A stretch of DNA of 51,193 bases. It comes from a virus (lineage: Duplodnaviria; Caudoviricetes). Location of the stretch: IMG/VR virus record IMGVR_UViG_3300035670_000303, positions 1 through 51,193 of that record. One strand, written 5' to 3'. Position numbers and translations under genes: made by a program. The notes under the pieces were generated by a model. That model had not been told where the DNA came from and did not search any database. It saw only the letters and a program-made list of their open reading frames with translations. Position 1 is the first letter of the stretch; each line of letters starts with the position of its first letter. Below are positions 675 to 48,307 of the stretch, piece after piece.

Positions 675-978
675 CACCCGCATCGTCGCGGACATCGTGG
701 TTGGCGGCCTGCTGGCCCGCTGGCTGGGCGCTGCGCTGCAGCTGATCGCCCTCAAGGCCTTCATTGAGCCGGCAGCTGTGTGGGCCGGCCGCTCGCCCTA
801 CCGCTGGCTCGATCGCCTGCTGGGCGACGTCCTGCCCGATGGCCCGGGAGGCTCAGTAGTCCCAGCGCACCCTGGGGCGCCCCGGCCGGATGCCCACATG
901 CACGAACCCCCGATGGGCGCCGTACCCGAGGCTGTAGGGCCAGTTGGCGTCGCACCACCGCTGGAGCTCGACCACTGA
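664..978 (+). CDS. Hypothetical membrane-associated protein
   Basis: ATG 664 overlaps previous ORF; hydrophobic N-half; 3' end overlaps the convergent endolysin. Confidence 0.4.
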   Translation: MTDDTRIVADIVVGGLLARWLGAALQLIALKAFIEPAAVWAGRSPYRWLDRLLGDVLPDGPGGSVVPAHPGAPRPDAHMHEPPMGAVPEAVGPVGVAPPLELDH

Positions 979-1464
979 CATGCCATCCAGGTAGAAGTCC
1001 ACGGCGCCAGTTTCAGGGGCGTCGTACAGGTGCTCGCTTCGTGATGCGCCGCCCACCTGGGCATTGATCTTTGGCGGCCGGTGGCCAGAGGTGATGATCG
1101 CCGGACGCCGGAAGTGGTCCCTTGCCTTCTGCACAAACTGGCAGAGCACGATCGCGGTGTTGCATTGGTGCTGGCGGGTGAAACGCCTGGCCTCCGACCA
1201 CAGCGTCAACTCGCCATAGGTGACATTGCGGGTGATGCTGTAGCTGAACGGGGATGTCGGCTTGAAACCTTCCACCGGCTCGATCGGCTGGTCTTGATAC
1301 CCAGCCACCCATTCCGCGCTTTCATGCAGCAACCCCTTGTCTGCCTGGCGGATGTGCTGGCCCAGCTTCAATACCGCTGCCTTCTGATGCGGTTCGCCTT
1401 TGTAATGCTCCCAGAAATCCAACCAGCGCTCATCCGTGAGCGGCTTCTTTGTGGTGGGCATCAT
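853..1464 (-). CDS. Endolysin, peptidase M15A family
   Basis: ITSGHR...N..VGGASRSEH...AVDF...GFVHVGIR M15 Zn-peptidase motifs. Confidence 0.88.
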   Translation of the reverse strand: MMPTTKKPLTDERWLDFWEHYKGEPHQKAAVLKLGQHIRQADKGLLHESAEWVAGYQDQPIEPVEGFKPTSPFSYSITRNVTYGELTLWSEARRFTRQHQCNTAIVLCQFVQKARDHFRRPAIITSGHRPPKINAQVGGASRSEHLYDAPETGAVDFYLDGMSVVELQRWCDANWPYSLGYGAHRGFVHVGIRPGRPRVRWDY

Positions 1465-1475
1465 GGGAGCAGAAC

Positions 1476-1491
1476 TCTGCATCCATGCAAC
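1476..1491. promoter_or_regulatory. TCTGCA-N4-TGCAGA family palindrome between divergent endolysin and terS
   Basis: TCTGCA TCCA TGCAAC, 1 nt before the terS GTG; AACTCTGCATCCATGCA also at 13113-13129. Confidence 0.7.
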
Positions 1492-1492
1492 C

Positions 1493-1765
1493 GTGGCTGA
1501 CGCCAACCTGCGAGAGCTCTACGACCGCGGGCACAAGGCCGTGGTCGAGCAGCTGGTCGAAAAGATCGAGAACGGCGATGCAGACGATGGCGACCTGCGG
1601 CTGTTCGCCCAGCTGATGAAGCAGAACAACATCAGCGCCGCACCGATCGAAGGCACCGCCACCGAGGCGATGGCCAGGATGGCCGCCAAGCTCCACACCT
1701 TCGGGGCACTGGAGGAGAAGGCGAAGGTGGTGCCGATCCGCCCGGCACCGCCGGCTAGCGCTTGA
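1493..1765 (+). CDS. terS: Terminase small subunit (T7 gp18-like)
   Basis: ~90 aa helical protein, pattern H..VVEQLVEKIENGDA..GDL....QLMKQNNI typical of cyanopodophage gp18. Confidence 0.65.
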   Translation: MADANLRELYDRGHKAVVEQLVEKIENGDADDGDLRLFAQLMKQNNISAAPIEGTATEAMARMAAKLHTFGALEEKAKVVPIRPAPPASA

Positions 1766-3518
1766 CGCCGCCCACCGCGCCGCTGGCCTTCGGGATGATC
1801 CCCAGGGCCAGTGCATCGAGCTTCGCGCCGGTCTCATCGAACCAAGCCGCCAGGGAGGCCTCCACCAGCTCCTCCTGGCGCCGCTGGGCCACGCGCAGCT
1901 GGTCCTGGGCCGCGGCCTCCACGAAGTGGGCTGCAGCGATCGCCAGGGCGTCGATCCGGTCGTCGTAGAGCAGGCTGCCCCTGTCGGTGGTAATCCGGCT
2001 CAGCTGGAACATCAGCGAGCGTGGGTGGCCGGTGTCCGCATCCCGCTCGGCACCTTCCCAGTCCTTCTGGATCAGCTCGCTGTTCACCACCAGCCGGTGC
2101 TGCTGCACCAGGGGCGCGAGCACGTCAATGATCCGCCGCTCCTTCTGCCCAGCTGACCGTGGGGCCTCCTCGATCGAGCAGGGGTAGATGCGCTGCATCA
2201 CCGGCTGCAGGATCTTGCTGAACATGCCATCGCCGAAGTTCGGCTCAGGGATGACGGCATTGACCTGCCAGCGCTTGGCGATGCCCGCCAGCAGCTCCAG
2301 CACGTCGTCCTCATACCCCCGGGTGGTGCCGCCGCTCTCGAGCACAAACAGGTTGCCGCTGAGCTCGGCCACCACCGCCCAGGACAGTTCATCACTGCCG
2401 CGGCCAGAGGGGTCGATCGCCAGCACGCTGCGCCACTTCTCCGACCTGGGCAGCCAGCCCTGCACCATCATCGGCCGGTGGTAGTAGCGGTCAGCACCCA
2501 GACCCACGCAAGGCAGTTCGTTGATCCGCTGCTCTGCGCCGGATGCCCAGCTGATCACCTCCGGCAGCGCCTTGCCATCCAGCGGCATCACGATCAGGTC
2601 GCCCAGCCGGATCGGGAACTTGTCGAGGGTGCTCAGCCGGCAGTTGAGCATGTACTGCAGCTGCCAGCTGGCCTTGGTGCTGCCGGTCTCCCGCTGGATC
2701 AGCTCGGTGTCGTCAAACCGCTCCGGGTCGGTTGGGCCGCCCACCAGCTGCGGGTTGGTCTCGATCTCCTCCACCATGAGGGGGTCGAGGCAGCCGTCGT
2801 AGACATCGAAGGTGTCCGGCTTGGGGTAGCGGGCCGGCCACATCCGCATCTTGTACCCGCGCTCGCGCACCAGCCGCCAGTACATCGACGTTTCCAGGTG
2901 CGGTGTGCCGCGGAAGCTGATCTGCCGTGGCAGCGGCTGGCCGGCATCCGGCAACAGGATCGACTCGAACTCGGTGGTGGCCGCCCACAACCGCTCCTGC
3001 TTGAGCGGCGTGATCGAGTTGGTGAGGGTCTCGATGTCGTCGGGAATGATCATCGTGGCCCGCTTGCCGGTCAGCGACGGGCTGAGGATCCCGCACGCCC
3101 GCACCGATGGCGCACCATCGCCGCCGATGATCGCCGGGCCCACGTCGAACGCCAGGACGGACTGCCGCTGGTTCTCCTTGGGCTGGAGGCACTGCAGCAG
3201 GTCGATCTCCCGGATGCACCGGGCCATGAAGGTGGTGATCTCCTCGGCCTTGGTTTCGGTGGCGCCAGGAATCAGGATCTTCTCGCCCTCAGGGTCAATC
3301 CGCAGCCGGTGCAATGCCCGGGCGCCGCTGATGGTGGATTTGGCGATGCCACGAAAGCCAACCGTCACCGTGCGGTTGGGGCCCACCTCGTCCCATTCAC
3401 AGATGCGCAGCTGCTGCTTGGTGGGTTCATCCGCTAGACCCAGCTCGCGGAGGATGTAGCAGAAGAAGTAGGCGAACCGGCCGATGCCCAGTTCAGGTGG
3501 GATGGGGTAGACGCTCAT
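1755..3518 (-). CDS. terL: Terminase large subunit (T7 gp19-like)
   Basis: GFRGIAKST Walker A, LTGKRA...IIPDDIE Walker B, AIDPSGRGSDE nuclease motif, DDRIDALA. Confidence 0.95.
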   Translation of the reverse strand: MSVYPIPPELGIGRFAYFFCYILRELGLADEPTKQQLRICEWDEVGPNRTVTVGFRGIAKSTISGARALHRLRIDPEGEKILIPGATETKAEEITTFMARCIREIDLLQCLQPKENQRQSVLAFDVGPAIIGGDGAPSVRACGILSPSLTGKRATMIIPDDIETLTNSITPLKQERLWAATTEFESILLPDAGQPLPRQISFRGTPHLETSMYWRLVRERGYKMRMWPARYPKPDTFDVYDGCLDPLMVEEIETNPQLVGGPTDPERFDDTELIQRETGSTKASWQLQYMLNCRLSTLDKFPIRLGDLIVMPLDGKALPEVISWASGAEQRINELPCVGLGADRYYHRPMMVQGWLPRSEKWRSVLAIDPSGRGSDELSWAVVAELSGNLFVLESGGTTRGYEDDVLELLAGIAKRWQVNAVIPEPNFGDGMFSKILQPVMQRIYPCSIEEAPRSAGQKERRIIDVLAPLVQQHRLVVNSELIQKDWEGAERDADTGHPRSLMFQLSRITTDRGSLLYDDRIDALAIAAAHFVEAAAQDQLRVAQRRQEELVEASLAAWFDETGAKLDALALGIIPKASGAVGGVKR

Positions 3519-3522
3519 GCAG

Positions 3523-3553
3523 AGAGCCCCCCTGCCGAAACAGAGGGGCCCTC
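3523..3553 (-). promoter_or_regulatory. UUCG-capped hairpin immediately 5' of terL
   Basis: Minus strand GAGGGCCCCTCTG-T-TTCG-G-CAGGGGGGCTCTC ending a few nt before the ATG. Confidence 0.5.
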
Positions 3554-3645
3554 ACACCACCACCGACCTTTGGCTTGGGCGTTCACCGCTGCCATCAAGC
3601 CGGTAGTCCCCCGGGAACCACCCCAGCAGGTCATCACAGGGTAGC

Positions 3646-3969
3646 TCAGCTGCCGTAACCGAGTTCGACCCAGATCCCTTCGTGCGCCAGGACTTTCTCC
3701 ATCAGCTCGTTCTTGGTGAAGTCGTCAGGGTTCACCGTTTCCCCCCAGGTTGTCTCCAGCAGTGCAGCGATGTCGGCCTTAAGCAGTGCCGTCAACGCCG
3801 CGATGCGGGCGTTCAGCAGATCAACGATCGGGGACAGGTGGGTGGTGATGTTCAGGTCCACAATCCGTTCCCAGATGCGCCACAGCGGCACCACGGAGCC
3901 GGAGAACAGGCTGAGGTCCCTGCGCACGGAGCTGTCCAGCCAGACATTCATCGAGCGGGCCTGGGACAC
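3646..3969 (-). CDS. Hypothetical protein with small helical C-terminal domain
   Basis: GTG start 1 nt after palindrome CCTGCA GGGG TGCAGC (3971-3986), the same spacing as terS. Confidence 0.55.
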   Translation of the reverse strand: MSQARSMNVWLDSSVRRDLSLFSGSVVPLWRIWERIVDLNITTHLSPIVDLLNARIAALTALLKADIAALLETTWGETVNPDDFTKNELMEKVLAHEGIWVELGYGS

Positions 3970-3997
3970 GGCTGCACCCCTGCAGGACAGCTACAGG

Positions 3998-4393
3998 CTA
4001 CTCCGGGTCGCGGACGACATCCAGGGCTTCATCGAACTGCTGGAACAGGTGGCCGCGGCGTTGCGGGCTGCCCACTGAGGCCAGGCGGGGGTTGATGAGG
4101 AAGTAGCGGCTGCCGGAGGACTTGTCCACGGCGCGGGCGATCAGCTTCTCCTGTCGCAGCCGTCTGATGGACAGGCAGATGTTTGAGCTGGAGACGTTGA
4201 TCTGCTCGGCCAGGGCCTTCTGGGTGACGTTGACGCGACCGCTGCGCCAGTTCATGTGACCGAGAAGGATCAGCAGGACGGCCAGGTCACGGGGCTCCAG
4301 CCGCTTGTCGGCCAGGGCGCCTGCTGCAGCGGAGACGAGTTCTTCGACAAACAGCATGACGAAGTTTTCCGAGCCATTTTCTCTGGGCTTCAT
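3998..4393 (-). CDS. RepL-like winged-helix DNA-binding protein
   Basis: VLLILLGHMNW...VTQKALAEQINVSSSNICLSIRRL...YFLINP...G pattern of plasmid RepL/wHTH proteins. Confidence 0.65.
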   Translation of the reverse strand: MKPRENGSENFVMLFVEELVSAAAGALADKRLEPRDLAVLLILLGHMNWRSGRVNVTQKALAEQINVSSSNICLSIRRLRQEKLIARAVDKSSGSRYFLINPRLASVGSPQRRGHLFQQFDEALDVVRDPE

Positions 4394-4434
4394 TGTGAGG
4401 CGCGAATGGTGGGAGAAAGCAAGGTTCCCGCTAG

Positions 4435-4460
4435 TAGGTGACACCTAGGCGATCCCTAGG
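4435..4460. promoter_or_regulatory. Phased (CC)TAGG-N5-CCTAGG-N5-CCTAGG operator-like site
   Basis: 11-bp periodic CCTAGG; similar at 9043-9060 and 13066-13095. Confidence 0.6.
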
Positions 4461-4479
4461 GAATAACGAACTCAGCAGT

Positions 4480-4492
4480 GGTACAAATGTTC
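4480..4492. promoter_or_regulatory. Cyanobacterial LexA-box-like site
   Basis: GGTACAAATGTTC versus consensus RGTAC-NNN-DGTWC. Confidence 0.5.
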
Positions 4493-4903
4493 AGCCCAGT
4501 CATACCAAGGGATCTGCTCTCGATAAAGTGAATGTCGATTTACTTTAGCCCCCAAGCACCCCAGTCCACCACTGACGATCCGAGATTCAGTCTGATCTCT
4601 TACTGGAGACCCAAAGCAGATTCACAACCCGGGGGAAAGAAGGGGGAAAGAAGGACAGAGGGCCACTCCCACCACGCTGCCTCCCACCCCACCTCCAGCC
4701 GGGCTGCCACCCTGCCACGACCACACCACCATCGCCACCCACGCCCGCCTTCCGGTGGGGTGGCACCACCTCCCTGGTATCTCCGCACCCCAGCGGACCC
4801 GCAGCCGCCTTCCTGGGCCGCCTGGCCCCCTCCTGTGCATCGCTGCAGACCACCCGCCCCCGGGTTGATCGCTGCAGATCCGGCGTCATCCGGCCCAGAC
4901 CGT

Positions 4904-4963
4904 TTTGGGGTCGCGTCATCTAGTGGGGTCCCAATTTGGGGTCGCGTCATCTGGTGGGGTCCC
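4904..4963 (+). repeat. Tandem 29-bp direct repeat, 31-bp period, in the probable genome-end/origin region
   Basis: TTTGGGGTCGCGTCATCT(A/G)GTGGGGTCCC at 4904-4932 and 4935-4963. Confidence 0.85.
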
Positions 4964-5180
4964 CCACGCGAGGCGCAGCTGCTTCCCCCCTATGGGGGCC
5001 GCTCTGCTGCCCCTGGGGCCGCCGGTGGCTGCCCTGGTGCTGCCTGCCTGCCCTGCCTGCGGCTGCTGCGCACCCTGGGGCCTGCCCGGCCAGTGCTGGT
5101 GGGCCACTGCTGCGGATGCGTGATCCGCTGCGCCGGGCTGGTGGGGTGATGCCGGGGCAGCTGGGGTAACTGGTCCGCTC

Positions 5181-5309
5181 TTTTTTGAGAATGGTTCCCA
5201 TTCCTATTCTTACTGTTACGAATTGTTACAGGTATGCACGCGCCCGCTTGGGACACGAATCAACCACGCACCAAAGCGGGCAGACTGTGGACATCTGCAG
5301 TGATGCAGA
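5181..5309 (+). promoter_or_regulatory. AT-rich early promoter region with HLR1-like repeat and perfect palindrome
   Basis: AT-rich island; GTTACGAA-TT-GTTACAGG 5215-5232; TCTGCAGTGATGCAGA 5294-5309 before the first early ORF. Confidence 0.5.
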
Positions 5310-5335
5310 CCACCACCACCGAACCTGGACAACCG

Positions 5336-5569
5336 ATGACCACGACGACCACGCCGGCGCCGCTTGCGGACGCTGGCGAGACGATGCAGCGGCTGGCGTT
5401 CTGCCTGACCGCTGCAGTAGTGGCAGGCCGCTGCCACCAGTCGCAGGCCGACCAAGCGCTGAGCCGATGGCTGATGCGCCCGGTCGAAGCCTCAGGGCTG
5501 ATGGAGCAGTTCGCCCACGTCAGCGCCGCCCACCGCGGGCTAATGCTGATCCGCTGGAGGCCTTCATGA
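5336..5569 (+). CDS. Early hypothetical protein
   Basis: ATG after CAC-rich leader; coupled to next ORF. Confidence 0.55.
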   Translation: MTTTTTPAPLADAGETMQRLAFCLTAAVVAGRCHQSQADQALSRWLMRPVEASGLMEQFAHVSAAHRGLMLIRWRPS

Positions 5570-5703
5570 CCCGCAGCACAGCCGCCGCCCTGGTGCTGGC
5601 GGTGCTGGGGATGGCAGCCGCCGCCCTGGTGCCGCCGGTGCCAGAGCTGCCCGGGGAAGCCCGGCCAGCAACGCCGCACCACTGGCAGCACGCCAGCCAC
5701 TGA
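5566..5703 (+). CDS. Small early protein with signal/TM segment
   Basis: ATGA overlap; MTRSTAAALVLAVLGMAAAALV. Confidence 0.5.
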   Translation: MTRSTAAALVLAVLGMAAAALVPPVPELPGEARPATPHHWQHASH

Positions 5704-5706
5704 CGA

Positions 5707-5778
5707 CAGCCCGGAGGGGGCCCGGTGCCCTCTCCCTGCTGCCCTCAGCAGCACACCACCACCACCACCGACCGACCG
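5707..5778 (+). promoter_or_regulatory. Double-hairpin plus (CAC)n intergenic element, copy 1
   Basis: CAGCCCGGAGGG..CTCCCTGCTG..CAGCA..(CAC)n; other copies at 7171 and 8191. Confidence 0.75.
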
Positions 5779-5967
5779 ATGACCACGACACTTGCCGCCC
5801 TGGTGCTCGCCCTTCTCCTGTTGCCCTTGCTGGTCCTGTTGTGGGCCACCGAAAGCCGGCAGCAACGAGCCCGCCGGATGCGGGGATACGGGATGACTCA
5901 GCAGGCAATCGCAACCCGGCTGGGCTGCAGCCGCACCACGGTGCGCCGACTGCTCGCCGCGGCCTGA
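5779..5967 (+). CDS. Membrane-anchored HTH protein
   Basis: N-terminal TM LAALVLALLLLPLLVLLW followed by GMTQQAIATRLGCSRTTVRRLL HTH. Confidence 0.75.
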   Translation: MTTTLAALVLALLLLPLLVLLWATESRQQRARRMRGYGMTQQAIATRLGCSRTTVRRLLAAA

Positions 5968-6000
5968 TCACCACACCACCAACACCACCACCGACGACCG

Positions 6001-6363
6001 ATGACAACGACAACCGCAAAGACCAAGACCGAGGAGCTCGCCGCTGTGCGGGCCCTGGCCGACCAACTGGGCCCTAACAGCTACCTGGGCCCTTGGCTGC
6101 GCGACGCCCTGCCCTGGCTCGCTGATCAGCTCCGCTGTGACCTGATGCCCCAGCGGGCCCAAACCATGGTTGAGGAGGCAGCCCGCCTGAGGGCCGATGC
6201 CTGCACCGATGCCATAGCCATCCGCAACCAGGCCCACAACGAAGCCCGCCAGACCCGCGAGGAGGTCGAGGCATGGGCAGGCAAGCGGACGGAAGAAGTG
6301 AGCGCCATCACCGGCCGCGCATGGGACGCCCTGCGGCTGGCCATGAAGGAGCTCGAACGATGA
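6001..6363 (+). CDS. Early hypothetical protein (coiled-coil C-terminus)
   Basis: CAC-rich leader, good codon bias. Confidence 0.7.
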   Translation: MTTTTAKTKTEELAAVRALADQLGPNSYLGPWLRDALPWLADQLRCDLMPQRAQTMVEEAARLRADACTDAIAIRNQAHNEARQTREEVEAWAGKRTEEVSAITGRAWDALRLAMKELER

Positions 6364-6536
6364 AACAGCACCGATACCACCAGGGGGCCCTAGCGGTCCC
6401 CTCCGCACAACCCCGCGACTACAGCCCGCCCGAGCTTGAGCTAGCCGGCCCGCAACAGGGCTGGTTGGCCCTCGATGGCGGCGCCCTGGGTCCGCTGTTC
6501 AACGACCACACCACCACCACCGAACCCGACCGATGA
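6360..6536 (+). CDS. Early hypothetical protein
   Basis: ATGA-coupled at both ends. Confidence 0.45.
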   Translation: MKQHRYHQGALAVPSAQPRDYSPPELELAGPQQGWLALDGGALGPLFNDHTTTTEPDR

Positions 6537-6712
6537 CCCACGCCACAGCGCAACGCTGGCGACTGGTCAGCTACCACCCGACATGGGGCAGCGACTGGCG
6601 CCACTTCGCCACCTACTACGAGGCAGTGCAGGCCCGCGCCCGGCTGCTGGCCCTGCCGTCCGACGGCACCGGCTACACGATCGAGCCCTGCCAGCCGGAA
6701 GGGGACCGATGA
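6533..6712 (+). CDS. Early hypothetical protein (59 aa, MTHATAQRWRLVSYHPTWGS...)
   Basis: CAC leader then ATG 6533; ATGA-coupled to next; below the ORF-track cutoff. Confidence 0.6.
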   Translation: MTHATAQRWRLVSYHPTWGSDWRHFATYYEAVQARARLLALPSDGTGYTIEPCQPEGDR

Positions 6713-6879
6713 CCCGCACCTATCCGCAGTGGTGCCGCTCCCTGTATTGCGGGGAGACGGCCTGCCCCGCTGGCTGCCCACACCTGCCCGAGCTGCAGGA
6801 GTTCAAGGCTTGGCAGCGGCGCACCAACGCGCACCAGCCGGACCCGATCTGGAGCCCGACCATCTGGCAGGAGGCCTGA
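6709..6879 (+). CDS. Small Cys-rich early protein
   Basis: C-x4-C-x4-C-x3-C pattern; ATGA overlap. Confidence 0.55.
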   Translation: MTRTYPQWCRSLYCGETACPAGCPHLPELQEFKAWQRRTNAHQPDPIWSPTIWQEA

Positions 6880-6882
6880 ACA

Positions 6883-7167
6883 ATGCCCATCAACGACCTA
6901 TCGGACCCATGCGCTCAGGCGCTGCTGCGCAGCCGGGAACCCAAGCCGAACCCATGGCCCGGCAACCCCAACGCCTATGAGTGCCCCTGGGGCTGCAACG
7001 GGACCGGCTACATGCCGTGGTTCAGCCATATCGAAGGCGGAGTTTGTTTCCGCTGCCACGGGACCGGCTGGATTCTTGGCCGCGGCCACCAGCCCGCACC
7101 GATCAAGCGGGGCAACACCAGCCGCGCCAAATGGCGCAAGGAAGCCGGCCGGATCGTGCCGGCATGA
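6883..7167 (+). CDS. Small zinc-finger protein (DnaJ-type CxxCxGxG repeats)
   Basis: CPWGCNGTG...CFRCHGTG. Confidence 0.7.
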   Translation: MPINDLSDPCAQALLRSREPKPNPWPGNPNAYECPWGCNGTGYMPWFSHIEGGVCFRCHGTGWILGRGHQPAPIKRGNTSRAKWRKEAGRIVPA

Positions 7168-7170
7168 CAC

Positions 7171-7236
7171 CAGCCCGGAGGGGGTGCGCTCCCTCCCTGC
7201 TGGTCTCACCAGCAACACCACCACCACCACCGACCG
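7171..7236 (+). promoter_or_regulatory. Double-hairpin plus (CAC)n intergenic element, copy 2
   Basis: GGAGGGGG-TGCG-CTCCCTCC and TGCTGGT-CTC-ACCAGCA, then CAC repeats to the ardC ATG. Confidence 0.75.
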
Positions 7237-8187
7237 ATGACCAAGACCGCAACCAAGACCAAGCCCAAGACCCGCAAGCCCTACGACGGGCCCACCCCAG
7301 AGGAGAAGCTGGCCGCCGATCTCATCGCCCTGATGGAGCAGGGCATCAACCCATGGCGCCGGCCCTGGGTTGGCTTCAACGGCGAGCACCGCAACCTTCT
7401 GACCGGCCACCAGTACCGCGGGGGCAATCCGCTCCTGTTGGAGGTCGGCAACCTCAGCCGGGGCAACACGCTGCCCCTGTGGATGGGTGCCGGCCAGGCC
7501 AAGGCCAACGGCTGGATGCCAGCCAAGGGCAGCAAGGCCGCCCGCATCGCTCAGCCGCGGCCCGTGAAGTTCGAGGACCCCGACAAGGAGCCCGGCGAGA
7601 TCAGCAGCAGGGACAAAAACTTCATCGTCTATGGGCTGGTGCCCGTGTTCAATGCCGCCGACCTGGTGGGCGTTGACGAGGACAGCGCCGCGGCCCTGGC
7701 CCGCCGCATCGACGAGGCGACCGGGAAGGTCGATCACCGGCCCGAGCCAGAGCGTCTCGCGCACGCCGAGGACGTGTTGCAGGCCTGGCCCGTGGAGGCC
7801 CGCACCGGCGGCACCCTGGCCTGTTACAGCCCGGCGCTGGATCGAATCTCCCTGCCCGAGCCGCGGGCGTTCGACAGCCGCGAGCACTTCGCCGCGACCT
7901 GGGCCCATGAAGCGATCCACAGCACCGGCCATAGGGACCGGCTGGCCCGCGACCTGTCGGGCAAGTTCGGCACACCCGCCTACGCCCGGGAGGAGCTTAT
8001 TGCCGAAATGGGCAGCGCGATTCTCTGCCGCCGGCTGCAGATCGGCTCAGAGCTCAAGGACCATGCCGACTACCTGGGCGGCTGGTGTCAGATCCTGCGC
8101 GAGGACCCGCGGGCTGTGCTCAAGGCCCTGGGCGCTGCCAAGAAGGCCGCCGATCTGATTGCCCCCGAAGCGATCGAGGAGGCGTGA
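7237..8187 (+). CDS. ardC: ArdC-family antirestriction ssDNA-binding protein (DUF1738 plus zincin-like domain)
   Basis: PWRRPW...N..TG..YRG.N, VFNA, HEAIHSTGH..RL.R, YAREELIAEMGSA. Confidence 0.92.
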   Translation: MTKTATKTKPKTRKPYDGPTPEEKLAADLIALMEQGINPWRRPWVGFNGEHRNLLTGHQYRGGNPLLLEVGNLSRGNTLPLWMGAGQAKANGWMPAKGSKAARIAQPRPVKFEDPDKEPGEISSRDKNFIVYGLVPVFNAADLVGVDEDSAAALARRIDEATGKVDHRPEPERLAHAEDVLQAWPVEARTGGTLACYSPALDRISLPEPRAFDSREHFAATWAHEAIHSTGHRDRLARDLSGKFGTPAYAREELIAEMGSAILCRRLQIGSELKDHADYLGGWCQILREDPRAVLKALGAAKKAADLIAPEAIEEA

Positions 8188-8190
8188 TCC

Positions 8191-8257
8191 CATCCCGGAG
8201 GGCTGTGGCCCTCCCTGCTGGGTTCACCAGCGCAACACCACAACCACACCCCGAACC
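8191..8257 (+). promoter_or_regulatory. Double-hairpin plus (CAC)n intergenic element, copy 3
   Basis: GGAGGGC-TGTG-GCCCTCC and GCTGG-GTTCA-CCAGC, then C/A-rich leader to ATG 8258. Confidence 0.75.
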
Positions 8258-8446
8258 ATGCTCACCATTAGCACCACAGAGGCTGCCCTGCTGGCTGCCC
8301 TGCTCCGCCCAAGGGTCACAGCGCTCAGCGAGCTGCTGGCTGCCCAGATCCAATGCCTGCCGCCTGGCGATTCCAGCTGGGCCGATACGGAAGAACAGCT
8401 CGAGACCGCTCAGGCTGCCCTCTCCAAGGTGGAGGCGATCCGATGA
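8258..8446 (+). CDS. Early hypothetical protein
   Basis: Follows repeated leader element. Confidence 0.6.
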   Translation: MLTISTTEAALLAALLRPRVTALSELLAAQIQCLPPGDSSWADTEEQLETAQAALSKVEAIR

Positions 8447-8589
8447 GACGCTTCCTGGGAATAATCAGGCCGCTGCGCGTGCCGCTGCTGTTCGTGGTCA
8501 TCCTCGCCGGCTGGCCCCTGGTGCTGCCCCTGGCCTGGCTCACGCTGCTGGGCTTCTGCGCGTACTGGTTGATCTGGGGGAAGCGATGA
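8443..8589 (+). CDS. Small membrane protein
   Basis: 48 aa, almost entirely hydrophobic; ATGA-coupled at both ends. Confidence 0.55.
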   Translation: MRRFLGIIRPLRVPLLFVVILAGWPLVLPLAWLTLLGFCAYWLIWGKR

Positions 8590-8921
8590 GCGCCACCCCT
8601 GCAGACGTTGCCGCCATGCTGCGCGGCATCCGGGCCCACCATCAGGCGATCAGCGCCAGTGCAGTTGAGACGCTTTTGCACGTCGCAACAGGCGCAGACT
8701 GCAGCGCCGAGCTGTGCCGCCGAATGGGGGTGGTGCGCCAAACCGTCAACCGGAACCTGCAGCACCTAGTTGGCCGCGGCCAGATTGGCAAAGGTCGGGT
8801 TAGGTCCAGGCTGGGGCTGGTGCAGCGGTCGAAACACCCGGACCGCAAAGGGTTTCGGCTTGAGCTCACGGAAAACGGCCGCGAACTTTTAGCTAGTACA
8901 TTTGGACCATTTGAGCCATGA
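8586..8921 (+). CDS. MarR-like winged-helix regulator 1
   Basis: SAELCRRMGVVRQTVNRNLQHL...LGLVQR..HPDRK..RLELTENGR. Confidence 0.75.
   Translation: MSATPADVAAMLRGIRAHHQAISASAVETLLHVATGADCSAELCRRMGVVRQTVNRNLQHLVGRGQIGKGRVRSRLGLVQRSKHPDRKGFRLELTENGRELLASTFGPFEP
8895..8908. promoter_or_regulatory. LexA-box-like site
   Basis: AGTACATTTGGACC, one mismatch to RGTAC-NNN-DGTWCB, in a locally AT-rich patch. Confidence 0.4.
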
Positions 8922-9042
8922 GAATTCGGCTTTTGGCGACCGTCTGCGTCCCTATCACAGGACGATGGCTGGAGTGGTCGCTATGGCTTGAGAACCATGG
9001 CGGCCGGCCCCGGCTTGCTCTGCAGCGGTGCCAAACTCCAGG

Positions 9043-9060
9043 TAGTAGGTATCACCTAGG
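9043..9060. promoter_or_regulatory. TAGTAGG-N5-CCTAGG operator-like site
   Basis: TAGTAGGTATCACCTAGG versus TAGTAGGTGACACCTAGG at 4432-4449; 3 nt before the start at 9064. Confidence 0.6.
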
Positions 9061-9063
9061 ACC

Positions 9064-9381
9064 GTGGATCTCCGTTCACTGGCCTTGGCTTTAGGCACTT
9101 TTGCCACCCAAGACCCGACCCGTTTCCCGCTGCACCACGCCCGGCTGTTCCTTGAAGTCGCTCTAAACGAGCCGACCACCTTCGAGCACCTAGAGCAGGC
9201 CCTCAACCTGACCAACTCCAGCGTGTCCCGATCGGTCTCAGCCCTCAGCGATCGAAACCGCCACGGCGACCGCGGCTACCGGCTGCTCACCGTGGAACGC
9301 GACCCCGAGGAGGGGCGTCGCTTCCTGGTCCGCCTGAGCCCTAAAGGCCGGCTGCTGCTCCAGCAGCTGCAGCGGATCTGA
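9064..9381 (+). CDS. MarR-like winged-helix regulator 2
   Basis: LEQALNLTNSSVSRSVSAL...G..LL...RDPEEGRRFLVRLSPKG. Confidence 0.85.
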   Translation: MDLRSLALALGTFATQDPTRFPLHHARLFLEVALNEPTTFEHLEQALNLTNSSVSRSVSALSDRNRHGDRGYRLLTVERDPEEGRRFLVRLSPKGRLLLQQLQRI

Positions 9382-9415
9382 TCACACCACCACCACCACC
9401 ACCAACAGAACCACC

Positions 9416-10402
9416 ATGACCGGATCAGTTCGCCGCACGGCGGACGGCTGGATTGCCGATGTCTGCATCAACGGCACCCGCCGCACCGCCAAACGCAAGA
9501 CCAAGACCCAGGCCATCGAGGCCAAGCGCCAGCTGCTCGAGCTCCTGGTGGCCCGCAGCAAAGGCGAGCCGGACGGCATCACCATCACCGATGCCCGGGC
9601 CCTCTCCCTGCGCATCCGCTGGGCTGGCAAGGCCTTCGAGCGGACTGCGGCCATCTACAGCCAGGCCGCCGTAGATCACTTCGGCCCGCTCACCCAGCTG
9701 GGCAGCATCACTGCGCCAGCCGTGGAGGAGTGGCGGCAGCTGCTGCTGCGCGGCGGCAACCGCCCAGGGACCGTAAACGCCAAGGTGAGCTGCCTGCGGG
9801 CCATGTTCGGCGATGCCGTGCTCCATGGGCACCTGGCTGCAATCCCGCCGCTGCCCAGGCAGCTGACGAACCGCAACGTCAAGGACCGCACCTTCTCCGA
9901 TGCTGAGATCGCAGCGTTCTGCGATCGGTTCCATGCCGCAGGCCAACCCGCCGCGGCCGACCTTTTCATCTTCCTGCTGGAGACCTGCTGCAGGTGGGGC
10001 GAGGCCGAGCGGCTGCGTGGGGCTGATGTGGATGTGGAGCGCCAAAGGGTCACCTTCTGGGAGACCAAAGCCAACCGGGCCCGCAGCGTGCCGCTCACCC
10101 GCCGCGGCCTGGATGCCCTGCTCCCCCATCTGCCGGCCGTGCCGGGCCATCGGGTCTACCCCTACAGCTACAGGCAGTTCAAGTGGCTGTTCGAGTGCGC
10201 CAAGGAGGGGCTGGGCATCACCGACCCGGCCCTAACGATCCACTGCACCCGCCACACCTGCGCGAGCAAGCTGGCGACCAAGGGGATCCCGCTCCACCAG
10301 CTGATGGCCTTCGGCGGCTGGACCTCACTCCAGAGCGTGCAGCGCTACCTGCACCTGCACACCGATGCCCTGGCGTCCTGCGTGGCAGCGCTTGAGGCCT
10401 GA
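9416..10402 (+). CDS. int: Tyrosine integrase
   Basis: LLETCCRWGE (R), ETK (K), HCTRHT (HxxR), GGW, QRY (Y); short N-terminal arm-binding region. Confidence 0.95.
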   Translation: MTGSVRRTADGWIADVCINGTRRTAKRKTKTQAIEAKRQLLELLVARSKGEPDGITITDARALSLRIRWAGKAFERTAAIYSQAAVDHFGPLTQLGSITAPAVEEWRQLLLRGGNRPGTVNAKVSCLRAMFGDAVLHGHLAAIPPLPRQLTNRNVKDRTFSDAEIAAFCDRFHAAGQPAAADLFIFLLETCCRWGEAERLRGADVDVERQRVTFWETKANRARSVPLTRRGLDALLPHLPAVPGHRVYPYSYRQFKWLFECAKEGLGITDPALTIHCTRHTCASKLATKGIPLHQLMAFGGWTSLQSVQRYLHLHTDALASCVAALEA

Positions 10403-10682
10403 CTGTGGATGCGTCCACCGGATCACGGGAGGATGCAAACTGGGTGCGGTTGGGTGCAGGTTTCTGCATCCTCTGCACCCTTCTCATTTGCTGAGAAGCC
10501 TTGCCACAACTGGCCGGGGGTCTAGCTATCTGGTGAAAGCAGCGGACTCATAATCCGTTTTCCAGTTCTGCATCCCTGCAGATGTCTGGCCTGAACTGCA
10601 GTCAGGCACCCACTGATCAACTCTGCGGGGGTGGGGTGTAATAAGTGCATCGTGATACCGATGCTGCATCTTGCCTGCATCC
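10403..10682. other. attP region: tRNA-derived core flanked by repeated GGRTGC/TGCAYCC arm-like sites
   Basis: Non-coding gap after int; repeats at ~10407, 10431, 10442, 10452, 10465, 10474, 10569, 10676. Confidence 0.75.
10516..10557 (+). pseudogene. 5' half of a tRNA with CAT anticodon (Ile2 or Met), attP core
   Basis: GGGGGTC-TA-GCT..TGG..AGC-A-GCGGA-CTCATAA-TCCG: acceptor 5' strand, D arm and anticodon arm; no T arm or 3' acceptor. Confidence 0.85.
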
Positions 10683-13070
10683 TGCAATTCCTACACACCC
10701 TCGGAGGACCGCCAGCGGCATCTGGAATCGGCGGCTCAGGAGGCGGCAATCAACCGCTCGCGGATCGCCCGGGCCAAGCTCAAACAGCAGGAGAAGGAGA
10801 GCGCCACCGAATACGGCAGGGCCCTGTTCCATGCCCACGGCGAGCGGGTTGCGCTGGCGCTGGAGCACAAGCTGGGCAAGGCGCTGAACCGTGAAGAGTT
10901 GGCCGGCCCGTATCACGCCGGCATGTGGCTGCTGTTCCAGCTGGGCGACAAGGGGCCCCGCTCGATCGCTGCCGTCGCTCTGGGGGTGGTGCTCGATCGG
11001 ATCAGCAAGCCCACCAGCCACCGGGCCATGGCATCCGCCATCGGCAAGGCGATCGAGGCAGAGATCAGAGCGCTGCCGATCGAGGACCGGGGGCAGGATC
11101 TGTTGCGCATCGCCCGCCGGCGGCACGGGAAACAGCTGGCATCAAGGGCCCGGCTGGAGCAGCTGCGCATCCAGGTGGAGCCCTGGGCTGCTGCTGATCG
11201 CTTCCAGGTGGGCGCCTTCCTGCTGGAGATCATCACCACCGAAACCGAGCTCCTGCGAACGACGAAGCAGCCAGGGCGCCGCGGCCTGCAGCTGGTGCCG
11301 GCGCCCGTGGTGGCCGAGATCATCGCTGCCCATCCGCCCACGCCAGCCCGGGCCCGCCGGCTGCCGATGCTCACCCCGCCCAGGCCATGGGAGGGGATGA
11401 CCGGCGGCGGGCACCTCGACAACACCGAGCCCCTGGTGCGCAGCCGCAAAGGGCATCCGATCGACTACCTCACCACCGAGGCCCTGCAGCCGGCGCTGCA
11501 GGTGGTGAACACCCTGCAGGAGCAGGAGCTGCGGCTGGATCCATGGATGGTGGGCAACCAGCGCATTGCCTGGGATGCAAACTTGCGCGGCCTGTTCCCG
11601 ATCCTGCGCGATCCGATCGAGGCCCCGCCCAAACCCACCGAGCTGGTGGGCAAGGAGGCCATGGCCCGCTGGCATCAGCAGGAGCAGGCATTTCACCGGG
11701 ATCGGATCGAAGGCCGCCACGCCCGCAACCAGATCGAGAGCTCCATCCGCCAGGCCGAGCAGCTGGCCGGCGAGCAGCTGTGGTTCAGCTGGTGCATAGA
11801 CATGAGGGGCAGGGCGTACACCGCCAACCGGCTCACCACCCACCAGGGGCCCGACCATGAGAAGGCCCAGATCCTGATTGCCAACGCCAGGCCCTGCGAC
11901 GACCGCGCCGCCGACTGGATCCTCAAGGCTGCCGCGATCCACTGGGGCATGAAGGGCAGCTGGGTGGACCGGCTGCAGTTCGGGCGGGATCAGATCGAGC
12001 GGATGCTGGCCGCGGCCGAGGACCCGCTGGAGCGTGTCCATCTATGGCGTGATGCCAAGGAGCCGTGGCAGTTCCTGGCCTGCTGCCGGGCCATCCAGCA
12101 GTGGATCGAGGACCCCAGCCAGCCGATCCATCAGCCGGTGCGGCTGGATCAGACCAGCTCCGGCCCGGGCATCATCGGCGCGCTGCTGAGGGATCGCGGG
12201 CTGGCCCGGGCCTGCAACCTGATCGGCACCACCTGCCACGACCTCTACACCGAGCTGGCCCAGGAGGTGACGCTGCTGCTGCGCTCTGATCTGGAGGCCG
12301 GCGATGCCAAGGAGCAGCGGCACGCGGCCTGGTGGCTGGAGAAGGGCATCACGCGGGCCATGGCCAAGATCCCCGTCATGTCCACGGTCTACGGGGCGAA
12401 GCTGCTGGGTGTGACCGAGCAGCTGGTGGCCCTGCTCGATGAATCAGAGGGTGCGGTGTCCCTGGGCCGGCTGGAGCGCGAGCGGCTGCTGCCCTGCCGC
12501 TACCTGGCGCGGAAGTTCGGCCTGGCTGTTGGCGCCCGCCTGGGTGGCGCCGTGGCGTTCCAGGCCTGGCTGCGGGCCGTGGTGCGCTGCTGCAGCGCCA
12601 AGAACAAGCCGATGCAGTGGACAACACCGATGGGGCTGCCGATCCGGCTGGGCAAGGAGCTCACCGCCAGCAGCGGGGTGAAGTCGCTGCTGCATGGCAC
12701 CCGCCGCTGGCAGACGCTGCTGGATGCGCCGCCACCGGGGAAGCTCAGCGCCCTGGAGACCGGCCGGGCGATCACCGCCAACCTGATCCACTCCTTCGAC
12801 GCGGCCTTGGTGTGGGCGATGGTCTGCGATGGTGCAGATAAAGGCGTCACGGTGCTGCCCAACCACGACTGTTTCGCCGTCCCGCCCTGCGATGCCGAGT
12901 GGCTGCACAGCACGCTGCTGTGGCGCACTGGGGAGCTCTACCGGCCGGACTGGCTGGCCGAGATCACGGCCGAAATCCAGGCTACGGCTGGGGTGCAGCT
13001 GCCAACGCCGCCGATGGTGGGCACGCTGGAGGTGGGGGAGATCGGCAGGAACCCCTACCTGTTCTCCTAG
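10671..13070 (+). CDS. Single-subunit T7-like RNA polymerase (gp1)
   Basis: DMRGRAY, motif A LDQTSSG, motif B RAMAKIPVMSTVYG, NLIHSFDA, motif C HDCF, C-terminal YLFS; start codon uncertain. Confidence 0.96.
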   Translation: MPASCNSYTPSEDRQRHLESAAQEAAINRSRIARAKLKQQEKESATEYGRALFHAHGERVALALEHKLGKALNREELAGPYHAGMWLLFQLGDKGPRSIAAVALGVVLDRISKPTSHRAMASAIGKAIEAEIRALPIEDRGQDLLRIARRRHGKQLASRARLEQLRIQVEPWAAADRFQVGAFLLEIITTETELLRTTKQPGRRGLQLVPAPVVAEIIAAHPPTPARARRLPMLTPPRPWEGMTGGGHLDNTEPLVRSRKGHPIDYLTTEALQPALQVVNTLQEQELRLDPWMVGNQRIAWDANLRGLFPILRDPIEAPPKPTELVGKEAMARWHQQEQAFHRDRIEGRHARNQIESSIRQAEQLAGEQLWFSWCIDMRGRAYTANRLTTHQGPDHEKAQILIANARPCDDRAADWILKAAAIHWGMKGSWVDRLQFGRDQIERMLAAAEDPLERVHLWRDAKEPWQFLACCRAIQQWIEDPSQPIHQPVRLDQTSSGPGIIGALLRDRGLARACNLIGTTCHDLYTELAQEVTLLLRSDLEAGDAKEQRHAAWWLEKGITRAMAKIPVMSTVYGAKLLGVTEQLVALLDESEGAVSLGRLERERLLPCRYLARKFGLAVGARLGGAVAFQAWLRAVVRCCSAKNKPMQWTTPMGLPIRLGKELTASSGVKSLLHGTRRWQTLLDAPPPGKLSALETGRAITANLIHSFDAALVWAMVCDGADKGVTVLPNHDCFAVPPCDAEWLHSTLLWRTGELYRPDWLAEITAEIQATAGVQLPTPPMVGTLEVGEIGRNPYLFS

Positions 13071-37429: not shown

Positions 37430-37458
37430 ACCGCCCTGCCAGGGCGCGGCAAGATTGG

Positions 37459-37474
37459 TCTGCAGCCGTGCAGA
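37459..37474. promoter_or_regulatory. Perfect TCTGCA-GCCG-TGCAGA palindrome before tail fibre
   Basis: 4 nt before GTG 37479. Confidence 0.7.
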
Positions 37475-37478
37475 TCTT

Positions 37479-41726
<4,248 letters not shown>

Positions 41727-43996: not shown

Positions 43997-44262
43997 CCAG
44001 CCCCTATCTTCGCGCCGCCCAGAAGTTCCCAGCCCTCCGCCAGCAGGCCCAGGAACGCCTCAGCAAGCGCCCCGGCCACGCAGGCCGCCCAATCATCCCC
44101 GAGGTGGTAGAGGATCGCCCCGGCAAACCAGCAGCGCCCGGCAGGCAGCCCGAACCCGCACAGGATGCCGTGGTGGTGCGCCGCGCCAAGGACAGCAAAG
44201 GCCGGTTCAAGGCTGACGATCCGTCCACGCCCGAGGACGAGGCATGGGAAGAGCTGCCCTGA
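43993..44262 (+). CDS. Small phage protein with RAKD.KGRF..DDPSTP..EAW motif
   Basis: C-terminal motif recurrent in phage virion-module proteins. Confidence 0.65.
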   Translation: MTSPYLRAAQKFPALRQQAQERLSKRPGHAGRPIIPEVVEDRPGKPAAPGRQPEPAQDAVVVRRAKDSKGRFKADDPSTPEDEAWEELP

Positions 44263-44383
44263 CCAGCCTGATGATTGTCACCGCGCCGATGGTGGCGTCG
44301 GGCTTTGCTGCGGCGCTGCAGCTTCCCTTGTGGGTTGCAGCAGTTCTGCTGCTGCCTGCCTATGCCGTGCTGACTGAGTTCAT
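44257..44383 (+). repeat. 127-bp exact direct repeat, copy 2; podophage/siphophage junction
   Basis: Identical to 1-127. Confidence 0.95.
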
Positions 44384-44393
44384 TCAGTTGTAA
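44271..44393 (+). CDS. Small hydrophobic membrane peptide (allele of 15-137, ends FIQL)
   Basis: Stop position retained (TAA vs TAG) despite divergence beyond the repeat. Confidence 0.5.
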   Translation: MIVTAPMVASGFAAALQLPLWVAAVLLLPAYAVLTEFIQL

Positions 44394-44432
44394 AAACGCC
44401 GGTAAACTATAAACAACACCACCGATCACGCC

Positions 44433-46259: not shown

Positions 46260-46396
46260 TGTTCTCAATCCTGTTCATCGTCGCCTGTTGGATCCTCATC
46301 CCCTGGCTGGCGGCATCCACCACGATCCCCCTCCCGCTGTTCCTGCTGCTGATCCTGCCGGTGCTGGTGCTATTGGTTGACCGGATCCAGCCATAG
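46259..46396 (+). CDS. Small hydrophobic membrane peptide (45 aa, ends DRIQP)
   Basis: TGATG-coupled; aligns without gaps over 28 aa with the 15-137 peptide. Confidence 0.55.
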   Translation: MFSILFIVACWILIPWLAASTTIPLPLFLLLILPVLVLLVDRIQP

Positions 46397-46405
46397 CCTG
46401 TTCCC

Positions 46406-46705
46406 ATGACCTCCTGGACCCGCCTACATACCCGGATGTGGGACACCGCGTCCCGCCGGCTGGGCCGCGTGCCAGTGGTGGCCGGCGCCGTGAGCACAAC
46501 CGGAATCTTCGATGAGAAGTCTGAGCTGGTGCTAGATGAGCAGGTGGTGAGCGTTGAAAATGCCCTGACCGTGCGCACCAGCGAGCTGGGCCACCTGCGC
46601 TACGGAGCCAGCATCACGGTGGACGGCGTGGCTTACCGGGTACGCCACGAGCCGATGCGGATAGCGGATGGCCTGCTCTGCGTGATCTCGCTGGAGAAAG
46701 CATGA
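46406..46705 (+). CDS. Head-tail joining protein (lambda gpFII-like)
   Basis: GIFDE, L.YG..ITVDG..YRV....R..DG. Confidence 0.8.
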   Translation: MTSWTRLHTRMWDTASRRLGRVPVVAGAVSTTGIFDEKSELVLDEQVVSVENALTVRTSELGHLRYGASITVDGVAYRVRHEPMRIADGLLCVISLEKA

Positions 46706-47130
46706 CCACCAAACGGGAGCAGATCCTGGCCGCTGTCGCCACTGCGTTGGCGGCCACCAGTGGCGCCACGGGCAGGGTGTACCGCTCCAGGCAAGAACCC
46801 CTCAGCCGCAACGAATCGCCGGCGGTGGTGATCCAGCCGGGCCCGGAGTCGAAGTCTCCCGAGCCGGTCAGCACCTGCAAGATCGACCACACCCTCACGC
46901 TGGTGGTGGCCGTCTACGCCCGAGGCACAATCCCCGACCAGGTGGCCGATCCGGTGGTGAAGTCCGTTCACGGCTTGCTGATGGCAGACCGCACCCTGGG
47001 CGGCCGGGTGATGGACATCTGGCCGCTGGCCCGTGATCCGCAATTCTCCGAGGCTGACCTGGCCGCCGTGTGGGAGGTGCTCACCTACCAGGTCCGCTAT
47101 CGCACCAGCGTCACCGACCTGGGGGCTTAG
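46702..47130 (+). CDS. Tail terminator / completion protein
   Basis: TKREQIL, RVYRSR..P....PA, D.TLGG, Y.V.YRT. Confidence 0.8.
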   Translation: MTTKREQILAAVATALAATSGATGRVYRSRQEPLSRNESPAVVIQPGPESKSPEPVSTCKIDHTLTLVVAVYARGTIPDQVADPVVKSVHGLLMADRTLGGRVMDIWPLARDPQFSEADLAAVWEVLTYQVRYRTSVTDLGA

Positions 47131-47172
47131 GTGAGCTCCATAGGCTGAGGTTGCGGATTCTCAGCCCTGGGT

Positions 47173-47337
47173 ATGCCCCGTTCCAAACCTGAGCCAGATC
47201 CCCGGCCCACCGATGGCGGCAGCTACCTGCTGTGCCCGGATACCGGCAAGTGGATCGACCAGGAGGCGCCGGCACCCGTGGCACCCGCTCCTATTGCCCC
47301 CATCGACGCCCTGAGCGATGACCCTGCTGACTCGTAA
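47173..47337 (+). CDS. Small hypothetical protein (54 aa, GGSYLLCPDTGKW)
   Basis: ATG 47173 to TAA 47337, upstream of tail tube. Confidence 0.6.
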   Translation: MPRSKPEPDPRPTDGGSYLLCPDTGKWIDQEAPAPVAPAPIAPIDALSDDPADS

Positions 47338-48274: not shown

Positions 48275-48307
48275 TCCAGGGCACTGTTCACCACTCACGG
48301 CTAACCC

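Follow-up and report, generated by a model that had tools for sequence, protein, structure and literature searches.

One source (PMC3867540) describes five RNase III signals in the early RNA of bacteriophage T7, an ideal RNase III substrate of 22 bp as against cellular substrates that are often below 20 bp, and internal loops which lead to single-strand cuts leaving stabilising 3' hairpins. A second (PMC10989914) reports RNase III genes in all sequenced cyanobacteria, usually one to three, along with RNase E and the 5'-3' exonuclease RNase J. In a third, single-stranded CA-repeat tails strongly raise translation initiation, with a maximum at 16-18 nt (PMC5934652). Here we analyse a repeated intergenic element in the 51193-base stretch of IMG/VR virus record IMGVR_UViG_3300035670_000303, hereafter the window, which is 100% complete according to CheckV and has a G+C content of ~65%. 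Each copy of the element spans the junction between two early genes, from the upstream stop codon to the downstream start codon; its RNA can adopt two mutually exclusive folds, both kept by covariation, and may be a processing site comparable with those of T7.

A preliminary description of this DNA had noted three copies of a double hairpin that ends in a C/A-rich tract, and all three stand. The exact 9-mer CCCGGAGGG starts at 5710, 7174 and 8194, always on the plus strand, and occurs three times in the 51193 bases. A gapped pattern for the element gives three forward and no reverse matches in the window, and none with the reversed-pattern control, and a covariance model scores the three copies at 75.7-76.8 bits, followed by a next-best match of 17.3 bits. 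As had been claimed, the start of each copy lies 3 nt past the TGA of the upstream open reading frame (ORF; TGA at 5701-5703, 7165-7167 and 8185-8187), and each copy reads in the order proposed and ends in a C/A-rich tract followed by ATG (5779, 7237 and 8258). Mean identity among the aligned copies is 80%, and they differ by indels of 3, 5 and 1 nt. Hairpin 1 reads GGAGGG.../...CCCUCC and hairpin 2 GCUGN.../...NCAGC in each of them, and on folding both stems are paired in all three despite their differing loops and stem lengths.

A further helix and a pairing of the stop codon were found that the preliminary description had overlooked. A segment of 6 nt starting 2 nt after the stop codon, X-up, is complementary to X', the 5' strand of hairpin 2, which otherwise pairs with X-down, and the UGA pairs with a conserved UCA. 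The resulting long hairpin consists, from the foot upwards, of the 3-bp UGA:UCA pairing, a 1x1 mismatch, 6 bp, a 2x2 internal loop ((C/A)C opposite CU) and a G+C-rich upper stem of 7-10 bp, and reaches a height of 19-21 levels in the window copies. X-up begins 2 nt and hairpin 1 begins 10 nt past the stop codon in every copy of the alignment.

Copy 1 (type A) extends from TGA to leader end over 5701-5778 on the plus strand (covariance model match 5699-5764, 76.8 bits). By alignment columns it comprises X-up at 5705-5710, the internal-loop CC at 5711-5712, hairpin 1 at 5713-5735, CU at 5736-5737, X' at 5738-5743, UCA at 5745-5747 and X-down at 5748-5752, after which the C/A-rich leader (5753-5778) runs up to the ATG; the long form has a folding energy of -28.6 and the two-hairpin form of -27.0 kcal/mol. 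Copy 2, on the same strand at 7165-7236 (match 7163-7226, 76.6 bits), has X-up at 7169-7174, hairpin 1 with a UGCG loop at 7177-7196, X' at 7199-7204, UCA at 7206-7208 and X-down at 7208-7213, and its leader (7214-7236) runs to the ATG of an ArdC-type gene, as had been noted. Its unconstrained minimum free energy (MFE) structure is the long hairpin including UGA:UCA (-27.8 kcal/mol, against -24.4 for the double hairpin). Copy 3 (type B), again on the plus strand, starts at the TGA that ends the ArdC-type gene and covers 8185-8257 (match 8183-8243, 75.7 bits), with X-up at 8189-8194, hairpin 1 at 8197-8214, X' at 8217-8222, UCA at 8224-8226, X-down at 8227-8231, the leader at 8232-8257, and energies of -26.2 (long) and -24.3 kcal/mol (double).

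The covariation analysis, which the preliminary description had proposed as a check, supports both claimed hairpins and the third helix as well. On the alignment of the family (A4), 94.2% of 691 cells are paired in the long hairpin, compared with 77.8% after shuffling and 45-55% after sliding of the partner columns, and nine of its 17 pairs vary at both positions; pair 7-59, for example, occurs as GC 21 times, CG 19 times and AU once, with none unpaired, and pair 10-56 as AU 35 times and CG six times. Since A4 was fitted to the two-hairpin fold, it is not biased towards the long-form helix. For the two-hairpin fold itself 97.9% of cells are paired, and eight of 14 pairs have changes on both sides. 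The segments X-up, X' and X-down occur in 19 distinct combinations, in which X' takes the form of nine different hexamers; X-up:X' keeps 5-6 of six pairs in all of them, and X':X-down keeps 4-6 (5-6 in 18 of the 19). The two folds are nearly isoenergetic: the energy of the long form minus that of the double form averages -1.96 kcal/mol (sd 3.1), and of the 41 distinct copies, 30 favour the long form and 10 the double form. The conserved UCA is present in 37 of the 41.

Several features tell the strand on which the element acts. Among the distinct apical loops of hairpin 1, 14 of 35 are UNCG tetraloops, mostly on a C-G closing pair, and such tetraloops have a special stability in RNA. G-U pairs, which would be A-C mismatches if read on the other strand, fill 51 of the 691 cells of the long hairpin. 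Because of these tetraloops and G-U pairs we take the element to act as sense-strand RNA; antisense scores of the covariance model do not exceed 25 bits, against 26-82 for sense matches. Of the earlier proposal of a structured RNA or single-stranded DNA element, then, the structured sense-strand RNA is borne out by covariation, UNCG loops and G-U pairs. The other half, a single-stranded DNA promoter, is not supported because -35/-10-like hexamers are lacking, the loops are of UNCG type and T7-like phages inject double-stranded DNA; a promoter of the Frpo/ssi type was rejected on finding no promoter-like site in 3500-11000 and stems of G/C only, besides the UNCG loops.

Searches with a covariance model (R1), built on 23 distinct copies from 19 sources, delimit the family. 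In the window and six relatives chosen by their polymerase, R1 gives 13 matches of 58.6-81.9 bits, the next best (18.9 bits) being the antisense of a true copy, and in the six close relatives the copies again lie upstream of the RNA polymerase gene. Out of 18 related IMG/VR records searched whole, 17 hold one to three strong copies each, on one strand and within 1-3 kb; the record without an R1 match is a 15-kb fragment. A pattern scan of IMG/VR returned at least 122 stretches, mostly chance matches, from which copies with the whole architecture were picked out, and the final family comprises 44 copies, of which 41 are distinct; they come from the window, from 15 related virus loci and from two contigs of metagenome-assembled genomes. 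In isolated phages the sequence of the element was not found by blastn, which gave chance partial matches with E-values of at least 0.05. Among the matches listed (at least 121) from 185,579 species genomes, one per species, true copies occur in two short phage-like contigs alone (L155/L156 and L158), one of them binned as uncultured Synechococcus and the other apparently a mis-binned phage fragment; this collection may not include the hosts of phages such as the one described below, which bears on the missing chromosomal copies. A direct-repeat survey of the window shows no further copy, and none before late genes.

Against Rfam the whole window has no match at the gathering threshold, and in E-value mode two noise matches to miRNA families (E 2.8 and 3.9) on the opposite strand, which, along with the covariation in all helices, supports the earlier idea that this structured element had not been described before. 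A term search of the accessible text of the genome paper of the nearest isolate (PMC8790148) gave no description of the element, and no description of such an element in cyanophages was found in the searched literature, subscription journals being outside its coverage.

This nearest isolate, the freshwater Synechococcus phage S-SRP02 (RNA polymerase identity 46.7%), provides independent support, as the same architecture is seen there in other sequence. R1 barely detects its junctions (18.1, 17.8 and 12.5 bits) because the sequences differ. Yet the unconstrained MFE structures of two of them show UGA, a 1x1 mismatch, 7 bp, a loop, an upper stem and UCA, all in unrelated sequence (z-scores -4.7 and -3.7), with a height of ~25 levels, and both also have a matching X-down copy. 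The junction hairpins of S-SRP02 are followed by C/A-rich leaders, one having a Shine-Dalgarno (SD) site instead. A third S-SRP02 junction, 12522-12587, is a perfect-looking hairpin of ~30 bp (-57.8 kcal/mol, z -7.0) that starts at a TAG stop codon and precedes an SD-type start; in its upper part it is almost the same as the junction at 11604.

The C/A-rich leader, 21-29 nt from hairpin 2 to AUG and without SD, also occurs alone, which adds to the preliminary description. On the plus strand, leaders of (CAC)n type without hairpins were found at 5968-6000 before the gene 6001-6363 (C+A 0.90 in the last 30 nt, no SD-like motif, direct-repeat families D5, D9, D10 and D16), at 9378-9415 before the integrase gene 9416-10402 (C+A 0.97), and, from composition and the direct-repeat survey, at 6502-6532 before the gene 6533-6712 and at 5305-5335. 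More generally, early genes including the integrase gene have SD-less (CAC)n-like leaders with C+A of 0.87-0.97 in the last 30 nt and often the start context GACCG-ATGAC, and SD-like motifs are seen instead at abutting or overlapping early genes and at most late genes. The sequence CACCACCACC with at most one mismatch occurs 56 times, against 6.5 expected.

The virus is a cyanopodovirus of the S-SRP02 lineage, T7-like and with an integrase gene; it has a gene order common to the window and S-SRP02 down to the minus-strand terminase. Gene calls by Pfam and PHROG matches place an endolysin (853-1506) and the large terminase (1755-3518) on the minus strand, and on the plus strand the early region from ~4532, a helix-turn-helix (HTH) protein (5779-5967), the ArdC-type gene (7237-8187), a MarR-like protein (9064-9381), a tyrosine integrase (9416-10402, matching the generic PF00589 and phrog_1 alone) and a T7-type single-subunit RNA polymerase (10671-13070; PF00940, PF14700, and phrog_414 at 2.9e-125), after which come SSB, exonuclease, portal, capsid and tail genes. 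The ArdC-type gene combines an ArdcN and a zincin metallopeptidase domain (PF08401 at 8e-17, PF18818 at 1.7e-40, phrog_7245 at 1e-65) and forms a one-gene module flanked by copies 2 and 3. The region with the element is an early operon, the counterpart of the T7 class I region, and because every copy in the window lies upstream of the phage polymerase gene the early transcript is presumably made by host RNA polymerase, as judged from position.

In our favoured reading, to which we give a probability of about 0.45, the element is an RNase III site of the T7 type, used for processing and stabilisation, and is predicted to refold after cutting. The sense-strand RNA of the early polycistronic transcript would fold, during transcription, into the long interrupted hairpin, and host RNase III would cut its 3' side in or close to the internal loop. 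Hairpin 1 would stay on the upstream message and cap its 3' end, keeping off 3'-5' exonucleases, and the freed X' would re-pair with X-down to give hairpin 2, a 5'-terminal stem-loop on the downstream message that may shield it from the 5'-end-dependent RNase E and RNase J. Ribosomes would then load on the SD-less C/A-rich leader, used as a standby or enhancer site. The early transcript would in this way become a series of self-contained modules of one to five translationally coupled genes, and since every module carries the same ends the repeats would, as a by-product, be places where recombination swaps modules. Such a cut-then-refold mechanism would account for all three covarying strands.

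The analogy with the RNase III hairpins of T7 early mRNA, already drawn in the preliminary description, fits in place and architecture. The element is placed between cistrons in the early operon of a phage that is T7-like, and it is an irregular hairpin of about two turns whose upper and lower stems are split by an internal loop. When the T7 early junctions were folded, which we take to be the RNase III sites (they were defined from annotated gene ends; the record does not annotate RNase III sites), they gave mutually similar two-tier hairpins with an internal loop, and the 0.4/0.5 junction has a stop codon in its foot. The relation is one of analogy in build and place, and not of homology or family membership.

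Some points weigh against this reading. The best R1 match in the T7 early region has 7.6 bits (E 0.66) and is not at a junction hairpin, so homology with the T7/T3 sites was not found there. With 19-21 levels and two interruptions, the helix of the window copies is at the short end for RNase III, and RNase III alone would not require hairpin 2, whose conservation is explained only by the proposed refolding step. TGA stands at the fixed place in 39 of 41 distinct copies, mildly above its general use in this phage (37 of 45 plus-strand genes); as the enrichment is mild, the case for stop-codon pairing draws mainly on the fixed spacing and on the conserved UCA. The sequences of the family are related, and the counts of paired cells therefore overstate the number of independent events. 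In S-SRP02, the junction at 12790-12876 is a simple hairpin without the lower stem.

If the cutting model is true, T7-style RNase III punctuation extends to a temperate freshwater cyanopodovirus lineage and works in a host phylum with several RNase III paralogues and RNase J and, to our knowledge, without Rho, and the added refolding step caps both new RNA ends.

The near-equal energies and the covariation of both mutually exclusive pairings would suit the main rival mechanism, in which the junction is a bistable switch toggled by the ribosome. A ribosome terminating at the stop codon would melt the foot and lower stem, move X' onto X-down and so convert an RNase III-competent long form into the two-hairpin form, coupling the fate of the junction (cleavage, decay or loading of the next leader) to translation of the upstream module. 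The footprint of a terminating ribosome covers the lower part of the element only; the stop codon and X-up would lie in the mRNA channel, and the ribosome would open this lower part and leave hairpin 1 intact. The start codon and the C/A leader are, however, sequestered in neither fold, so that a regulated output is not evident, and the leaders without hairpins serve other early genes equally. We regard such a switch as unlikely; it is nevertheless compatible with RNase III processing and may be an addition to it. Were it true, cutting, decay and translation of the next module would depend on translation of the previous one, and the element would act as a portable insulator and coupler, with which these phages could exchange early modules, including anti-restriction ones, and not have to re-tune expression.

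A simpler role is that of a passive stabiliser of the repetitive extragenic palindromic (REP) type, where unspecific cuts are made downstream, the G+C-rich hairpin then stops 3'-5' exonucleases without any dedicated endonuclease, and the lower stem does no more than add stability. Hairpin 1 is indeed very stable (-11 to -21 kcal/mol), UNCG-capped and directly behind stop codons, and the element, like REPs, which have a role in mRNA stabilisation, is a repeated extragenic palindrome. This leaves the conserved 2x2 internal loop, the conserved UCA and the covarying X-down unexplained. It also finds no repeat in a host genome: among the species-genome matches listed there are the two phage-like contigs, and the tens to hundreds of dispersed chromosomal copies of REPs and bacterial interspersed mosaic elements (BIMEs) were not seen. 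We consider a purely passive role quite unlikely.

In the main family the conserved stem sequence (GGAG...CUCC, CCCUG) exceeds what pairing needs, as would be expected of a site bound by a protein or by RNA polymerase, either a put-like processive antiterminator RNA or the target of a phage regulator. The put sites of HK022 have two hairpins 1-2 nt apart, which is also the distance in the two-hairpin form, and several small HTH and ribbon-helix-helix-like proteins are encoded beside copies. Such a role is nonetheless improbable, given that S-SRP02 and the divergent copies keep the architecture only and not the stem sequence, that an antiterminator is needed once per operon and not behind each module, and that no Rfam match was obtained.

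The comparison of relatives bears on whether the element acts at the DNA level. Genes that overlap or abut form groups (5336-5703, 5779-5967, 6001-7167, the ArdC-type gene and 8258-8589) whose borders are hairpin copies and hairpin-less leaders, and gene content changes at the junctions in relatives, a comparison that the preliminary description had called for. In four of five relatives a block of 88-93% identity extends to the polymerase gene from 8179-8185, where copy 3 has its first bases; before this point the DNA of those relatives is absent, ~70% identical or carries 200-430 extra bases. The ArdC region is only ~70% identical in two relatives (L126 and L128) and replaced by other DNA in a third (L127), where the matching interval holds a different gene of 159 aa, an extra copy of the element and a gene of 58 aa. 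A 62-aa family downstream of type-B copies is joined to five different upstream families in seven phages, and the 159-aa family is joined through the element to five different upstream families in six phages. Breakpoints also occur at hairpin-less leaders (5986-6006 and 6521).

As a side observation, extra or different DNA of 200-700 nt in four relatives (L127 809-1523, L126 543-973, L128 7139-7518 and L130 7327-7523) sits exactly between the ArdC stop codon, or its place, and the homologue of copy 3. Within the window, 6361-6535 can be read as a 58-aa ORF (GC3 0.78) or else as a structured spacer, with a predicted fold of -68.9 kcal/mol; it includes a weak R1 match (6414-6519, 13.9 bits), syntenic with weak matches in L128 and L130, and could be a decayed copy of the element.

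Synteny blocks that begin and end at copies, the repeated joining of one downstream family to five upstream families and the tyrosine integrase encoded nearby could all be expected of a recombination site or small mobile palindrome (attC-like, or like a miniature inverted-repeat transposable element) with cassette shuffling as its sole role. We hold this to be very improbable. The UNCG loops and G-U pairs indicate RNA from one strand, the fixed register to stop codon and leader argues for a role in expression, breakpoints are shared with leaders that lack the hairpins, and no GTTRRRY or RYYYAAC cores of integron attC sites were seen by eye in the 44 aligned copies, the integrase itself having the generic matches given above. 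Exchange at the copies is probably a by-product of the shared module ends. What stands of the earlier suggestion of a homology handle is the correlation of gene-content change with junctions, and nothing beyond that correlation; to speak of anti-defence cassettes was too strong, since ArdC alone is recognisable as anti-defence among 27 flanking protein clusters. The element offers a concrete explanation, at the level of sequence, of why related phages swap ArdC and other early modules at identical points. An intrinsic terminator or attenuator for host RNA polymerase is hardly credible, for despite a stable G+C-rich hairpin right behind stop codons there is no U-run (the following bases are CCCUGCUG and then the C/A tract), it would be costly to have three of them in one short operon that precedes the essential RNA polymerase gene, and, as the preliminary description had said of ordinary terminators, a scan flags none of the three copies, its three terminator-like sites in 3500-11000 (3.8 expected) all lying away from them.

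A few other candidates were tried and rejected. By consensus, neither a sigma-70 promoter nor a terminator was found at the copies. A coding role was discarded, as the GTG located 7 nt after GGAGG is in frame with the ATG in copy 1 only and out of frame in copies 2 and 3, and the 3- and 5-nt plus 1-nt indels between copies also rule it out. The GGAGG is not a distant Shine-Dalgarno sequence either, being 55-60 nt from the ATG, paired, and not kept in divergent copies or in S-SRP02. Promoters for the phage polymerase were dismissed, the copies being upstream of the polymerase gene only, with none before late genes.

Elsewhere in the window, endolysin/peptidase, large terminase and an HTH gene run opposite to all other genes (853-4444, minus strand; S-SRP02 6443-10024), a block that is unusual among T7-like phages. 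A direct repeat of 131 nt with 99% identity (1-131 and 44257-44387) is the 3' end of an ORF followed by unrelated sequence each time, and may mark the join of two strain variants, the wrap-around of a ~44.3-kb genome or the flanks of an inserted 6.8-kb module (44388-51193) that includes a phrog_290 minor tail protein. A run of CCCGAC/CCGGAC hexamers at 38436-38579, in a tail-fibre-like gene of 1423 aa (37455-41726), would encode Pro-Asp/Pro-Glu repeats.

Considering known systems, the kind of element is familiar, and the new details are its lineage, the bistable design of three strands, the stop-codon foot and the SD-less leader. The family offers a compact natural part for cyanobacterial operons, backed by covariation, in which stop codon, processing hairpin, 5' hairpin and SD-less CA leader follow one another. 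With the RNase III signals of T7 and T3 it shares the occurrence as multiple, mutually similar hairpins in early intercistronic gaps, behind stop codons and before the next initiation region, as well as a two-tier helix of about two helical turns with an internal loop. It differs from them in its host, a cyanobacterium with one to three RNase III genes, in a somewhat shorter helix, in the second, mutually exclusive and covarying X':X-down pairing that would give a 5' hairpin, and in the SD-less C/A-rich leader that follows in place of a Shine-Dalgarno site; cleavage is here a prediction. The REPs and BIMEs of enterobacteria are likewise repeated, G+C-rich imperfect palindromes behind stop codons within operons, plausible as 3'-exonuclease barriers and as recombination hot spots, whereas the cyanophage element is phage-borne, present in one to three copies per genome, and has a fixed stop-codon register, a conserved internal loop and an alternative fold. 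Finally, the single-stranded, SD-less C/A tract before the AUG resembles the CA-repeat standby or enhancer tails of Sterk et al. 2018 (PMC5934652), which are engineered 5' tails placed in E. coli before a structured, SD-containing ribosome-binding site, while the leader of the cyanophage element is natural, (CAC)n-like and replaces the SD.

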